From Cytophagales bacterium (GTDB lineage: Bacteria > Bacteroidota > Bacteroidia > Cytophagales > JAAEPT01), in the NCBI GenBank assembly GCA_965267335.1, contig OZ253953.1, forward strand, positions 1,818,662 through 1,882,661: a DNA stretch of 64,000 nucleotides, in the 5' to 3' direction. The notes under the pieces were generated by a model, which worked only from the letters and a program-made list of their open reading frames with translations, was not told where the DNA came from and searched no databases. This document shows, piece by piece, positions 58,210 to 63,248 of this stretch (position 1 is the first letter of the stretch; every line of letters starts with the position of its first letter). Both the position numbers and the translations under genes were made by a program.

Positions 58210-58740
58210 ATGTTAGAATTTTTCTCGGAACTGTTTGACGTTTCGGACTGGCCACCTCGTTGGTCATGTGGCAAATGGTCTGATTTTCATGGATGGCTAT
58301 ATATCTTGTCGGATATTGCTATTTGGTTGGCCTACTTTGCTATTCCAATTGTATTGATTCTTTTTATTCAGAAACGAAGTGACACACCTTTTTTGCCCAT
58401 ATTTTGGTTGTTCGGTGCGTTTATTGTTCTCTGTGGGGCTACTCACTTGATAGATGCAATTATATTTTGGTGGCCTGCCTATCGTGTAAGTGCATTGGTC
58501 AAATTTTTTACTGGTGTGATTTCCTGGGTTACGGTGTTTGCATTAATACGAGTGTTACCAAAGGCACTGAGTCTGAAGTCACAGGATGAGCTCATACAGG
58601 AGGTGAAAAGGGCACAGAAAGCTGAGAATGATTTAAAACAAAAAAATGATGAGCTAAATAAAATGATTAAGCACATGAGTGGTAGGGAACGGAAGATGGC
58701 GGAGTTAAAAGAAGAAATCAAACGCTTAAAAGGAGGATAG
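58210..58740 (+). CDS. Stand-alone ETR1-type ethylene-binding-domain (EBD) membrane protein with C-terminal coiled coil
   Basis: 176-aa ORF with three TM helices that align without gaps to Arabidopsis ETR1 residues ~14-117 (ETR1 recalled from memory).
- 'LSDIAIWLAYFAIPIVLILFIQKRS' vs ETR1 '[24 protein letters not shown]'.
- 'FGAFIVLCGATHLI' is identical to ETR1 58-71.
- 'KFFTGVISWVTVFALIRVLPKALSLKS' vs ETR1 '[27 protein letters not shown]'.

Equivalents of ETR1 D25, Y32, I35, P36, C65 and H69 are D35, Y42, I45, P46, C75 (nt 58432-58434) and H79 (nt 58444-58446). The C-terminal ~55 aa are a charged heptad-like coiled coil. Confidence 0.8.
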   Translation: MLEFFSELFDVSDWPPRWSCGKWSDFHGWLYILSDIAIWLAYFAIPIVLILFIQKRSDTPFLPIFWLFGAFIVLCGATHLIDAIIFWWPAYRVSALVKFFTGVISWVTVFALIRVLPKALSLKSQDELIQEVKRAQKAENDLKQKNDELNKMIKHMSGRERKMAELKEEIKRLKGG

Positions 58741-58742
58741 TC

Positions 58743-61040
58743 TTGAAAAGGAAGTCAAGAAATCTTGAAGCTCCGGTACTTTGGTTGATAGTCATTCTCG
58801 TGATATTAATTACAGCAGCGGCTGATATATTGCTGCCTTTGGGGATTGCAGGTGGTACTTTACAAATTTTTGTACCGCTGACTAGTTGGTTGTTTTATCG
58901 CAAAAGCGTAACTATAATTTTATCGGTTGCGAGTACGATTGTCATTATTATAGGATATCATTTATCTGATTCAGCAGCGGTTCCTGAGGCAATTGTATTA
59001 ACCAACCGCATGATTTCTATCACAGCAGTTTGGGTGGTTTGTTTACTCGTACTAAGAGCAGTTTCCGGTTCGAGAGAAAAAGACTCGCTTATTGCTAGCC
59101 TGGATGAACAGATAAAAGACAACGTAGCAGAGTTGGAAGAAAAAATGGAGGAGTATCAGATTACCAACACTCTGCTGGAAGAGTCTAAAGCTGCACTTAT
59201 CAATGTGATGGATGATCTCAACGAAAGCCAGGAAAGGTTTGACCTTGTTGTGCAGGGGGCAGGTGCTGGAATTTGGGATTGGCTCAAGATCAATGGAATT
59301 GAGCAGTGGTGGTCTGATAAATTTTATCTTCTATTGGATTATGAACCCGGTGAAATTCCAAGCACATTGGATTCATTCAAAGCCATACTACACCATGACG
59401 ATCATGAAAGGACTTTTCAATTGGTGGAACAACACTTTGAGAATAAAGTGCCCTTTCTCATGGAATACCGATTGAAGACCAAAAGTGGTGAGTATAAGTG
59501 GTTCATGGGTACAGGTAAGGCAGTGTGGGATGAGCAAGGAAACCCGGAACGGATGGTAGGCTCGATCATTGATATTCACCAACAGAAAACAACTGAGGAA
59601 TTGGTTGTGAAGCAACGTAACCTCCTGAATGAATCACAGAGGATTGCAAATCTGGGAAGCTACGAATGGTTTCCTCAAACAAATGAAGTTGTCTGGTCTG
59701 ATCAGATTTATGAAATACTTGAAATCGCCCCCGAAGAGCATGATGGTACTGTAGACAAAATTTTCGAATTGATACACCCTGATGACAAGGAAATGGTCAT
59801 GCAGATCAGTCAAAAAGCCATAGAATTAGGGAAAGCAATACCAGCCGAGTATAGGATTATTACTCCAAAAGGGAACCTGAAGTTAATCAAAGGAGAAGGG
59901 CATCACGAGCTTGATGCTGACGGAAATTTACTTAGAATCTATGGTACCCTTAAAGATATTACAGAGCGAGCCGAAGTACAGAACAGGTTAGAGTTATTTT
60001 TTAATCAATCATTGGAATTGATATGTGTGGCCAATGCTGAAGGTTATTTTCTGGAACTAAACCCAAGGTGGGAAGAAGTGTTGGGCTTTACTGAAGATGA
60101 GCTGAAGTCCAAGCCCTTTGTTGACTTTGTTCATCCCGAAGACGTGGAAGCAACGATATTGGAAGCTCAGAAACTTGCGAAGGGCCATCGGAGTATATCT
60201 TTCATTAATCGATACCGCACCAAGAGTGGTGACTATAAATGGTTGGAATGGACGGCTGCAACAGATTCTTTGACAGGACTATTGCTTTCAGTGGCCAGAG
60301 ATATTACCGAACAAAAACAAGCTAAGGATCTCCTCGAACAGCAAAAAAATGAACTTGAATCGAAGAACCAAGAACTCGAACAGTTTACCTATATAGCTTC
60401 TCATGATTTGCAGGAGCCTTTACGTACAATGATCAATTTTGCCAAACTTTTGTCCGACAGGTACGCCAGTGAATTGGATGATAGCGCTAATAAATTTTTA
60501 GGGTTTATGGTAGGTGCCTCGGAGCGAATGCAAATGTTGATTACAAGCTTGTTGGATTACTCAAGGATCGGGTCTAAAGGAGAGCTTGAACTTATAGATG
60601 TGTCTGTACTGCTTGATGGAGTCATAGCTGATTTGGCGGCTACGATTGAGGAAAGAAAGGCAAAGATACAGGTAGGGAAGATGCCAGAAATACATTGTCA
60701 CCCTGTTGAGATAAGGCTGCTATTCCAAAACCTAATTAGTAATGCAATTCGCTACTCAAGAGAAGGGGTGCCTCCGGAAGTTAAAATTACTCAGGAAAGG
60801 GAAGGAAATTATTGGAAGTTTACGGTATCTGATAATGGTCAGGGAATCGAAGAAAAACATTTTGATAAAATATTCATCATTTTTCAGCGCCTAAGCAATG
60901 AGACAAAAGGTTCAGGAATCGGCCTTTCACACTGCAAGAAGATTGTGGAGATTCATCATGGAAAGATTTGGGTGGAGTCAGAAGTGGGTGTCGGCTCGAA
61001 ATTTATATTTACTATCCCGGTTAACCTTAAAACTAAGTAG
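58743..61040 (+). CDS. Membrane-anchored PAS-PAS-PAS sensor histidine kinase (no receiver domain)
   Basis: 765-aa ORF with a TTG start 2 nt after the EBD gene stop; 'aggagg' lies 7-12 nt upstream. About four N-terminal TM helices and a coiled coil are followed by three PAS/PAC modules ('GIWDW...', 'LGSYEW...', 'LICVANAEGYF...KWLEW'). The HisKA H-box is 'FTYIASHDLQEPLR'. The HATPase_c motifs are 'NLISNAIRY', 'VSDNGQGI' and 'GSGIGLSHCKKIV'. Confidence 0.9.
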   Translation: MKRKSRNLEAPVLWLIVILVILITAAADILLPLGIAGGTLQIFVPLTSWLFYRKSVTIILSVASTIVIIIGYHLSDSAAVPEAIVLTNRMISITAVWVVCLLVLRAVSGSREKDSLIASLDEQIKDNVAELEEKMEEYQITNTLLEESKAALINVMDDLNESQERFDLVVQGAGAGIWDWLKINGIEQWWSDKFYLLLDYEPGEIPSTLDSFKAILHHDDHERTFQLVEQHFENKVPFLMEYRLKTKSGEYKWFMGTGKAVWDEQGNPERMVGSIIDIHQQKTTEELVVKQRNLLNESQRIANLGSYEWFPQTNEVVWSDQIYEILEIAPEEHDGTVDKIFELIHPDDKEMVMQISQKAIELGKAIPAEYRIITPKGNLKLIKGEGHHELDADGNLLRIYGTLKDITERAEVQNRLELFFNQSLELICVANAEGYFLELNPRWEEVLGFTEDELKSKPFVDFVHPEDVEATILEAQKLAKGHRSISFINRYRTKSGDYKWLEWTAATDSLTGLLLSVARDITEQKQAKDLLEQQKNELESKNQELEQFTYIASHDLQEPLRTMINFAKLLSDRYASELDDSANKFLGFMVGASERMQMLITSLLDYSRIGSKGELELIDVSVLLDGVIADLAATIEERKAKIQVGKMPEIHCHPVEIRLLFQNLISNAIRYSREGVPPEVKITQEREGNYWKFTVSDNGQGIEEKHFDKIFIIFQRLSNETKGSGIGLSHCKKIVEIHHGKIWVESEVGVGSKFIFTIPVNLKTK

Positions 61041-62092: not shown

Positions 62093-62478
62093 TGGAAGGA
62101 AAAATCACTTGTGTTACAGTAGAGGATGATGAATTAATGTCATCGATACTTAAAGACTTAATAGAAGAAAAACAGGATTTGGAGTTGTTGGAGCAGTTCA
62201 CAAATGGAGAAGTGGCTTTGAATCGCATCAATGAAATTCAACCGGATTTGATATTTTTAGATATAAATATGCCGGGAATTGATGGACTTGAGATGTTTGA
62301 TAATCTGGATTTCCAAACCTTTGTTATTATAATATCCGGGTCCAAGATAAGGAAAGAAGAAGGGGAGGAGATACCACACGTTGTTGCCTTTTTGGACAAA
62401 CCGGTTGATCATATTTCGTTCAATAAGGCAATAAGTGTTGCGGTAAAATTCGTAGAGCTGGATAGGAATTTATCCTAA
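62092..62478 (+). CDS. Single-domain response regulator (REC only)
   Basis: 128-aa ORF whose ATG overlaps the upstream TAA by 1 nt (TAATG). REC motifs are 'VTVEDDE', 'LIFLDINMPGIDG', 'VIIISG' and 'FLDKPV'. Confidence 0.75.
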   Translation: MEGKITCVTVEDDELMSSILKDLIEEKQDLELLEQFTNGEVALNRINEIQPDLIFLDINMPGIDGLEMFDNLDFQTFVIIISGSKIRKEEGEEIPHVVAFLDKPVDHISFNKAISVAVKFVELDRNLS

Positions 62479-62552
62479 TTTTTTCTAGTCCTGCACATAG
62501 ATTTGAGAATTGAGGACTTTTTTATCTAACTTAATTCTTCTTGAGCGCAACT

Positions 62553-63248
62553 ATGAGTAATCCCCTAAAAACTGTCATAATTGATGATGATCCACTCTCT
62601 ACTGAAGTTGTAACTTCATTGATAGATGATGTTGAGAATATTGAGTTGGTAGGAAGCTTTAATGACCCTGTTGAGGCAGTTAAGTTTTTGTCAACCCATC
62701 TGGTCGATGTATTGATTTTGGATGTAGAAATGCCAAAGATCAACGGATTGGAGATTATCGATAATATTGATCAAAACCCATTTGTGATCCTTATTTCAGG
62801 TAAAAAGGAGTACGCATTGGAAGCTTTTGATTATGATGTGGTTGACTATATCACTAAACCGCCAACACTTTCCCGCTTTCTTAAGGCAGTAGACAAAGTT
62901 AAAGAAAGGATTCACGGGAGATCCTCCGGACCATCTTCGGATCATATTTTCTTGAAGGTGGATTCCCAGTTAGTCAATTTCAAATTATCAGAGTTCTATT
63001 TCTTTGAGGCCTATGGCGACTACGTAAAGGCTCATGTGAAAGATAAATTTGTTGTAATTAAGCATACCCTAAGCTCAGTAGAAAAGAAGTTACCCGATGA
63101 TCAGTTTTTGAGGGTACACCGGTCCTACATTGTTCGTCTTGATAAAATATCGAACATCGAAGCATCGGCTATTGAAATTAAGGGGCAGATTATACCAATC
63201 GGAGGTAGCTTTAAAGATGTCCTGATGAGAAGGATTCGAACCTTATAA
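62553..63248 (+). CDS. LytTR/LytR-AlgR family response regulator (REC + LytTR DNA-binding domain)
   Basis: ATG 62553 is preferred over the track's TTG 62541. REC motifs are 'VIIDDDP', 'VLILDVEMPKINGLE', 'VILISG' and 'DYITKP'. The LytTR domain has 'IFLKVDSQLVNF...FFEAYGDYVKAHV...FLRVHRSYIVRLDKI'. Confidence 0.9.
   Translation: MSNPLKTVIIDDDPLSTEVVTSLIDDVENIELVGSFNDPVEAVKFLSTHLVDVLILDVEMPKINGLEIIDNIDQNPFVILISGKKEYALEAFDYDVVDYITKPPTLSRFLKAVDKVKERIHGRSSGPSSDHIFLKVDSQLVNFKLSEFYFFEAYGDYVKAHVKDKFVVIKHTLSSVEKKLPDDQFLRVHRSYIVRLDKISNIEASAIEIKGQIIPIGGSFKDVLMRRIRTL

Follow-up and report, generated by a model that had tools for sequence, protein, structure and literature searches.

A stand-alone ETR1-type ethylene-binding domain encoded beside a membrane histidine kinase in Bacteroidota, a candidate two-polypeptide sensor

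To date, work on the ethylene-binding domain (EBD) has dealt with it solely as the N-terminal part of large receptors. Bacterial EBD proteins described in the literature come from proteobacteria and cyanobacteria and carry varied output domains; the kinases of SynEtr1 and AzoEtr1 pass their signal to a response regulator whose gene lies close by. In plant ETR1, Asp25, Cys65 and His69 have roles in the copper site and Lys91 is a signal-transmitting residue, the K91R variant keeping its binding with lowered sensitivity (PMC10266040). According to a 2026 review, the EBD is without an experimental structure, its membrane domain being known from competing models and electron paramagnetic resonance restraints. 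Here we describe a locus in which the EBD is a polypeptide of its own. It lies in a 64,000-nucleotide stretch of a Cytophagales bacterium (assembly GCA_965267335.1, contig OZ253953.1, positions 1,818,662 to 1,882,661 of the forward strand; hereafter the window), where a gene for a 176-amino acid EBD protein is followed by the gene of a sensor histidine kinase with a membrane module of its own, and then by three genes coding for REC-HPt, REC and REC-LytTR proteins.

Based on sequence comparisons, we consider it probable that the EBD protein is the ligand-binding subunit of a two-polypeptide membrane sensor controlling an intramembrane-type PAS kinase. The EBD itself belongs to a known family; its arrangement with the kinase as two polypeptides would be a new variant, whose ligand and subunit contact are predicted.

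The ethylene-binding domain protein and its pairing with a kinase

Judged from its sequence, the 176-amino acid protein is a genuine ETR1-type EBD with a predicted Cu(I) site made of Asp35, Cys75 and His79. It matched the Pfam profile ETR1_N (PF25487) over positions 2-97 of 97 with an E-value of 4.4e-36 and a score of 123.5 bits against a cut-off of 27, while no NCBIfam model was found for it. The protein was aligned with real plant receptor fragments and with an ETR1 N-terminal sequence; this sequence shares 83-91% identity with the plant fragments, and its numbering agrees with the Asp25, Cys65, His69 and Lys91 of PMC10266040. In this alignment D35, Y42, I45, P46, I72, C75, H79 and K98 stand opposite ETR1 D25, Y32, I35, P36, I62, C65, H69 and K91. 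The six pairs already proposed in the initial annotation (all but those of I72 and K98) thus withstood formal alignment. The list of seven ethylene-binding residues of ETR1, which includes Y32, I35, P36 and I62, reportedly goes back to Wang et al. 2006. Papers state that seven binding residues exist in ETR1 and name only D25, C65, H69 and K91 (PMC10266040 among them).

The 14-residue string FGAFIVLCGATHLI of helix 2, previously said to be identical to that of ETR1, was recovered identically in the plant sequence P0124. The claim that the alignment runs without gaps had to be abandoned: the loop joining helices 2 and 3 is 3-4 residues longer in plant sequences, and N-terminal segment lengths differ as well. 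Because of this longer plant loop, the offset to ETR1 numbering is +10 in helices 1 and 2 and +7 in helix 3. Overall identity between the window EBD and plant EBDs is 26-33%. Among 158 stand-alone EBDs (39 derived from loci and 119 from databases), the binding residues are essentially invariant; the copper-site residues C75, H79 and D35 are invariant bar one D to E change, and the K98 position is occupied by K or R in every stand-alone member. The N-terminal segment is likewise constrained, with D13, W14, P15, R17, W18, C20, G21, W23, F26, H27, G28 and W29 invariant in 37 stand-alone EBDs. It holds one invariant cysteine, C20, whereas plant receptors have two; a single N-terminal cysteine has also been reported for cyanobacterial ethylene receptors. 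Canonical receptors form homodimers joined by disulfides between such N-terminal cysteines.

An AlphaFold2 model built from 130 sequences (mean predicted local distance difference test score, pLDDT, 94.2) comprises three membrane helices, in line with the three hydrophobic segments found by hydropathy, and a 51-residue tail helix. Pfam and AlphaFold2 concur with the earlier view that the protein ends in a coiled-coil tail and has no output domain. Hydropathy and charge suggest that, as in ETR1, the N-terminus is outside and the tail in the cytoplasm, an orientation that the basic QKRSD loop between helices 1 and 2 fits. The tail carries heptad-spaced hydrophobic residues, as read from the sequence (L128, A135, L142, L149, M156, M163 and I170), which would also allow dimerization of the EBD, and its L166 is invariant among 37 aligned stand-alone EBDs. 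No solved structure resembling the protein was found, either by sequence or by a fold search of the PDB.

The stand-alone form of the EBD is widespread. A survey in which one genome per species was scanned returned 80 loci; the EBD is stand-alone in 38 of them (mostly with 159 amino acids) and fused to HisKA-HATPase or PAS kinases in 42. Stand-alone EBDs were found in Flavobacteriales and Cytophagales (e.g., Maribacter, Tenacibaculum, Algoriphagus, Marivirga, Cyclobacterium, Aquiflexum and Chryseotalea), and fused ones in Chitinophagales, Sphingobacteriales, Mucilaginibacter, Planctomycetota and Verrucomicrobiota. The window EBD has its closest relatives in Flavobacteriales or Bacteroidia. In a neighbour-joining tree rooted with plant sequences, the stand-alone EBDs, including that of the window, form one block nested among fused forms, and the window EBD sits inside this clade beside L001 and Maribacter loci. 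Two state changes suffice to explain the EBD tree, the second one being that of the Planctomycetia locus L076. This locus (L076:6001-6678) encodes a 225-amino acid stand-alone EBD with no adjacent kinase; all other stand-alone EBDs of the tree fall within the main clade.

Directly downstream of each of the 37 stand-alone EBD genes of Bacteroidota, and in the same orientation, lies a gene for a histidine kinase with a shared four-helix module (this kinase is interrupted in L009). The two genes overlap by 1, 4 or 11 nucleotides at 30 of 36 junctions, and the largest gap is 26 nucleotides. The pairing also holds in the reverse direction: when metagenomes were scanned with the module motif [VI]ILYSW[LI][LFI]P, the EBD gene was found directly upstream of the module kinase in 14 of 15 confirmed loci, the exception being a 5'-truncated kinase. 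On the metagenome contig L093 (1-1761), a partner-type kinase begins about 30 residues into the membrane module, with upstream sequence that looks non-coding and no EBD gene, most probably owing to a rearrangement or to contigs joined in assembly. The hosts are marine and soil heterotrophs and include TARA Oceans contigs. Stand-alone EBD and kinase gene pairs, which the initial annotation proposed to look for in Bacteroidota with PAS kinases as partners, are present in 37 genomes and 14 metagenome contigs, and the window pair is a member of the split EBD and module-kinase family defined here, with a gap of 2 nucleotides and the S-W-L, N and W residues of the module kept. The EBD-kinase pair belongs to a large family and is not peculiar to this genome. 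Against the closest relative, L081, conservation within the locus is highest for the EBD, with 73% identity, ahead of TatD (68%), the LytTR regulator (65%), the kinase and the REC protein (54% each) and the REC-HPt protein (46%). A word-indexed protein search seems to return query-length proteins only, and its list of exclusively short matches was not used to judge the rarity of fused forms.

As to earlier descriptions, we found no mention of a stand-alone EBD paired with a kinase, nor of an EBD in Bacteroidota, in the full-text literature, the coverage of which was incomplete, so that an earlier mention of EBD-only proteins is possible. Within that coverage, the statement that the split architecture was not known to be described still stands.

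The partner kinase and the proposed two-polypeptide sensor

Pfam and hydropathy agree with the initial reading of the kinase as a histidine kinase with three PAS domains and its own four-helix anchor. Pfam detects three PAS_3 stretches (E=2e-53), PAS_9 at residues 427-523, HisKA and HATPase_c. The basic N-terminus (MKRKSR) is predicted to be cytoplasmic, and hydropathy, charge and a low-confidence model point to a cytoplasmic helix of about 58 residues ahead of the first PAS domain. The module helices cover residues 9-33, 36-50, 57-73 and 82-106 in a single-sequence model whose pLDDT of 53 restricts its use to helix boundaries. Because the module is almost devoid of external loops, the kinase would be unable to read outside signals directly. 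In both the EBD protein and the kinase, the last membrane helix is predicted to end in the cytoplasm and to continue as a long helix. Across 36 partner kinases, L46, S48, W49 and N88 of the module (window numbering) are invariant and D28, Y41, P52, C64 and W97 nearly so. The commonest partner kinase, of 385 amino acids, contains nothing more than membrane module, helix and kinase core; in other partners, between one and four PAS domains are present as well.

The module has no Pfam family, even at E<=1. The idea that it could be a degenerate second EBD that arose by duplication was discarded, as hhalign gave a probability of 5%. In ten matches to the module (within P0197-P0345), the module is located about 200 residues into the protein, behind another unannotated region; neither an EBD nor any other Pfam domain was found in the N-terminal part of these ten proteins.

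A functional link between EBD and kinase is indicated by their strict, overlapping pairing and from the close relatives in which the EBD is covalently fused to a kinase, the latter being classical fusion evidence. Together with the recovery of the pairs in both search directions, this strongly suggests that the EBD protein acts on the adjacent kinase, as had been proposed for a split sensor. We propose that the EBD dimerizes and associates with the kinase encoded directly downstream. Ethylene, or a similar small unsaturated ligand, would bind the Cu(I) site and shift helix 3, including K98, along with the tail. The kinase would receive this shift inside the membrane, by contacts between the cytoplasmic helices of the two proteins, or by both routes, and its autophosphorylation would change; further inputs could enter through its three PAS domains. 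For most family members, the next phosphoryl acceptor would be an Rcp1-like single-domain receiver. In the window, phosphotransfer would most likely run by way of the REC-HPt protein to the LytTR regulator, or else straight to the LytTR regulator or the small REC protein. Physical contact, direction of regulation and phosphotransfer partners are predictions in this scheme, and so is the ligand, which is deduced from residue conservation only.

Several observations weigh against this proposal. The position of ETR1 K91 is an arginine in most family members, the window EBD having a lysine. The module of the window kinase is divergent, with 17-27% identity to other copies, though it aligns throughout. 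In a tree of kinase cores the groups are intermixed, so that gene fission and recruitment of a partner kinase are not told apart. In a search of 1.84 billion representative sequences (E<=0.001), the module was found to belong to a far larger unnamed family of at least 706 clusters and may not be specific to the EBD; as these clusters comprise kinases of many architectures, the module is a general, unnamed kinase membrane domain. Finally, the genes downstream of the window kinase are not those usual for the family. In 31 of the 38 stand-alone loci, the gene next after the kinase codes for a single-domain receiver of 138-145 amino acids with the pattern LLIDDD...FLDINMPGxxGWEFL...LTTSxNPDD...KPL, which seems to resemble Rcp1 of the cyanobacterial phytochrome kinases, and this receiver is absent from the window. 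The 128-amino acid REC protein found there is closer to the receiver of the adjacent LytTR regulator (61 bits) than to the Rcp1-like receivers of the family (34-47 bits), and it may be a paralog of the former. The whole REC-HPt protein aligns at 46% identity with residues 717-957 of a 968-amino acid hybrid kinase of L081, whose last 240 residues are matched. Because the full-length match is confined to the C-terminus of that kinase, the REC-HPt protein appears to be a shortened hybrid kinase, and the REC-HPt, REC and LytTR genes probably derive from another signalling system next to it, which is truncated here, and not from a relay built for the EBD kinase.

These results modify the claim of a complete multistep phosphorelay. 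All four modules are indeed present and look intact, i.e., the HisKA domain of the kinase, a receiver, an HPt domain (28.5 bits against a Pfam cut-off of 24.6) and the terminal REC-LytTR regulator, and both the receiver aspartate (DLILMD) and the HPt histidine (HKQASSLK) are visible in the sequence. The set, however, looks derived from a separate hybrid-kinase system, and the usual receiver is missing. It is plausible that the EBD-linked kinase now feeds these modules, since it is the only kinase left in the cluster.

Whether the split itself is real was a prior concern, as the two ORFs lie just 2 nucleotides apart in different frames and could stem from a frameshift or an assembly artefact in a conventional fused gene. 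This explanation is effectively refuted, because the split is conserved in relatives: it recurs in genomes and metagenome contigs from independent projects, and the stand-alone forms make up a single clade. Moreover, the kinase has its own start, its basic N-terminus and four membrane helices missing from the fused relatives, and a fusion would yield an odd seven-helix protein with a coiled coil in its middle. Two genuine proteins could still be co-transcribed and work apart, the EBD protein serving as a sink for ligand or copper, or as a decoy. The kinase does have PAS sensor domains of its own and a widespread membrane module, yet we find such independence improbable given a near-perfect adjacency in both search directions, mostly with overlapping genes, across two bacterial orders; the commonest kinase form has no PAS or other sensor domain beyond its membrane module, and closely related EBDs are covalently attached to kinases.

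The nature of the signal leaves slightly more room for alternatives. ETR1 itself binds other alkenes and strained olefins, the conserved residues point only to an ETR1-type Cu(I) site, and the marine and soil habitats of the hosts contain other volatile alkenes, so that within the same architecture the physiological ligand could be propylene, isoprene or another alkene, carbon monoxide or an isocyanide. We deem this unlikely, considering that the published EBDs with the seven residues tested so far all bind ethylene saturably (ETR1, SynEtr1, AzoEtr1 and Geitlerinema cells) and that conservation in the family reaches second-shell residues such as Y42, I45, P46 and I72. Somewhat less likely still is a copper or redox sensor, in which the kinase would respond to the Cys/His/Asp site becoming loaded with copper or oxidized. 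The invariant copper ligands and the conserved Cys20 on the outer side would suit such a role, as would an SCO1/SenC-family gene that is translationally coupled to a stand-alone EBD gene in Gammaproteobacteria; yet a neighbouring chaperone gene could just as well serve cofactor delivery, no copper-homeostasis gene or SCO1-like ORF was found in the 80 loci of Bacteroidota, Planctomycetota and Verrucomicrobiota, and the outputs are single-domain receivers or LytTR regulators, which are not known copper regulators. The two-polypeptide sensor with an ethylene-type ligand remains our preferred reading.

The split separates ligand binding from output. The way the signal exits the EBD could consequently be tested by mixing subunits, which is impossible in fused receptors. 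A natural, strongly conserved and free-standing EBD of about 160-180 amino acids with a simple helical tail could also suit structural and binding work better, and, should the proposal be correct, natural EBDs of 160-176 amino acids would be tractable targets for the unsolved structure of the ethylene-binding site. Family members are frequent in Bacteroidota of marine and soil habitats, and ethylene-type sensing would thereby reach far past plants, cyanobacteria and plant-associated proteobacteria. Ethylene, as produced by algae, cyanobacteria and the sunlight-driven breakdown of organic matter, would then be a common cue for heterotrophic bacteria.

Organization of the gene cluster and its surroundings

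The positions of the five ORFs given in the initial annotation were borne out when the sequence was re-read, as were the 1-nucleotide TAATG overlap of the REC-HPt and REC genes (62090-62094) and the features of the EBD-kinase junction. There, the EBD gene ends with TAG at 58738-58740, the kinase gene starts with TTG at 58743, and AGGAGG is found at 58731-58736, 6 nucleotides ahead of this start. The AGGAGG falls in the stretch coding for KGG, the non-conserved end of the EBD protein, and could have occurred by chance; Shine-Dalgarno sequences are little used by Bacteroidota in general. Products identical to the 176- and 765-amino acid proteins, TTG start included, are present in a public protein collection. 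A consensus scan of the + strand found no terminator-like site between 58740 and 63248, the first one lying at 63793.

Table 1. Features of the EBD-kinase cluster, in window coordinates (aa, amino acids; TM, transmembrane)
Feature	Position	Strand	Basis
Five open reading frames (ORFs), in cluster order	58210-58740, 58743-61040, 61322-62092, 62092-62478, 62541-63248	+	ORF list
Stand-alone EBD protein, 176 aa	58210..58740	+	Pfam ETR1_N
N-terminal segment, aa 1-24, predicted outside cytoplasm, DWPPRWxCGxWSxFHGW motif, Cys20	58210..58281	+	conservation; topology predicted from ETR1 and positive-inside rule
TM helix 1, aa 25-55, D35/Y42/I45/P46	58282..58374	+	AlphaFold2 and alignment
TM helix 2, aa 62-85, I72/C75/T78/H79 (ETR1 I62/C65/T68/H69), predicted Cu(I) site	58393..58464	+	AlphaFold2 and alignment
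TM helix 3, aa 91-121, K98 (ETR1 K91)	58480..58572	+	AlphaFold2 and alignment
Predicted cytoplasmic C-terminal helix, aa 125-175	58582..58734	+	AlphaFold2, pLDDT 88-98
EBD gene/kinase gene junction: AGGAGG, TAG stop, 2 bases, TTG start	58731..58745	+	direct sequence read
Partner sensor histidine kinase, 765 aa	58743..61040	+	Pfam PAS_3 (three stretches), PAS, HisKA, HATPase_c
Four-helix membrane module of kinase, aa 9-106, almost without external loops	58767..59060	+	hydropathy; alignment to 36 partner kinases
Predicted juxtamembrane cytoplasmic helix, aa 112-169	59076..59249	+	low-confidence model; coiled-coil-like sequence; aligns with partner kinases
Three PAS domains, about aa 170-530	59250..60332	+	Pfam
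Kinase core: HisKA aa 545-611, HATPase_c aa 654-760	60375..61022	+	Pfam
Spacer, 281 nucleotides, without called gene	61041..61321	.	possibly decayed hybrid-kinase remains, unproven
REC-HPt protein, 256 aa; REC aa 21-130, HPt aa 166-243	61322..62092	+	Pfam
Single-domain receiver, 128 aa, LytTR-regulator-type	62092..62478	+	Pfam
REC-LytTR transcription regulator, 235 aa	62541..63248	+	Pfam Response_reg and LytTR
First + strand terminator-like hairpin 3' of cluster	63793..63816	+	consensus match only

The gene order of L081 closely follows that of the window, with an AraC-family regulator, TatD, the EBD and a 770-amino acid kinase, then the hybrid kinase, a 130-amino acid REC protein and a REC-LytTR regulator. 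The hybrid kinase (L081:10957-13863) has a GAF-PAS-HisKA-HATPase-REC-HPt architecture and occupies the same position as window 61041-62092. The spacer in the window contains short peptides resembling N-box, G1, G2 and C-terminal kinase segments, in mixed frames and collinear with the L081 kinase; the score of the DNA alignment did not exceed that of shuffled sequences (z=1.1), which leaves a hybrid-kinase relic unproven.

Upstream of the EBD gene, the window carries an AraC-family regulator and a TatD-family hydrolase gene (55850-58088), syntenic with L081:5683-7944 and not with other family members; both are probably unrelated to the sensor. Farther away, the window encodes two giant proteins of 3345 and 2877 amino acids (19117-29154 and 36770-45403), both with RCC1-like repeats, Big_9, cadherin-like or PKD domains and a CHU_C type IX secretion signal, and a 1227-amino acid GH5 cellulase (47557-51240) with a CBM6/CBM35 module and a type IX secretion C-terminal sorting domain. 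Like the closest relatives of the EBD, these type IX secretion domains point to a Bacteroidota as the source of the window.

Comparison with known receptor systems

The window EBD shares with ETR1/ERS1, SynEtr1 (Slr1212) and AzoEtr1 a homologous three-helix domain, the same Asp/Cys/His copper-site residues, the remaining binding residues, a basic residue in helix 3 and, as proposed here, coupling to a histidine kinase. Unlike ETR1, SynEtr1 and AzoEtr1, it is a separate 176-amino acid polypeptide, its kinase is a second protein with a four-helix module of its own, no GAF domain is involved, and the N-terminal segment has one conserved cysteine as opposed to two in plants. The window system is thus outside the canonical class of fused receptors, which is defined by a single-polypeptide architecture. 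Tentatively, and with less confidence than we place in the two-polypeptide sensor as such, the family may represent the first two-polypeptide ethylene receptor, with a trans-acting Cu(I)/ethylene-binding subunit complexed in the membrane with an intramembrane-type histidine kinase and inherited across marine and soil Flavobacteriales and Cytophagales.

The closest EBDs outside the stand-alone clade (44-63% identity) are those of the fused EBD kinases of Chitinophagales, Sphingobacteriales, Planctomycetota and Verrucomicrobiota (e.g., L002, L003, L013 and L070). These proteins have the same WPxRWxCGxW N-terminal motif and a linker helix homologous to the tail of the stand-alone form. They differ in being single polypeptides without the four-helix module, and an Rcp1-like receiver follows in only 4 of 42 loci.

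A second type of stand-alone EBD, of 143-145 amino acids and without a tail, was found in Gammaproteobacteria (L099:4418-9085, L102:372-1387 and L101:43-3055). In Exilibacterium (L099), the EBD gene lies between an overlapping SCO1/SenC-family gene and an overlapping gene for an 804-amino acid PAS kinase with a different sensor region, after which an Rcp1-like receiver is encoded. The overlap of SCO1/SenC and EBD genes is repeated on the metagenome contig L102, and in L101 a large protein without any recorded Pfam domain is encoded downstream of the EBD. SCO1/SenC proteins are copper chaperones. This arrangement fits a copper-dependent sensor acting on a separate kinase, with cofactor delivery to a free-standing EBD.

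Beyond EBD proteins, two known systems offer analogies. The stand-alone haem nitric oxide sensor H-NOX is encoded in an operon with a histidine kinase, HnoK, that it regulates in trans, sometimes within branched or multi-step relays. Here as there, a small gas-binding protein with a metal cofactor and no output domain would stand beside a kinase. The two are not homologous: H-NOX is a soluble haem protein, whereas the EBD is predicted to be an integral membrane copper protein, and its coupling to the kinase would therefore occur in or at the membrane. In this respect the window pair may be compared with intramembrane-sensing kinases that rely on accessory membrane proteins, such as BceS with BceAB and LiaS with LiaF, which likewise combine a compact membrane module having minimal external loops with a membrane partner encoded next to the kinase. 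The membrane modules and partners differ and are not homologous, and the partner proposed here is a ligand-binding domain already known from fused receptors.

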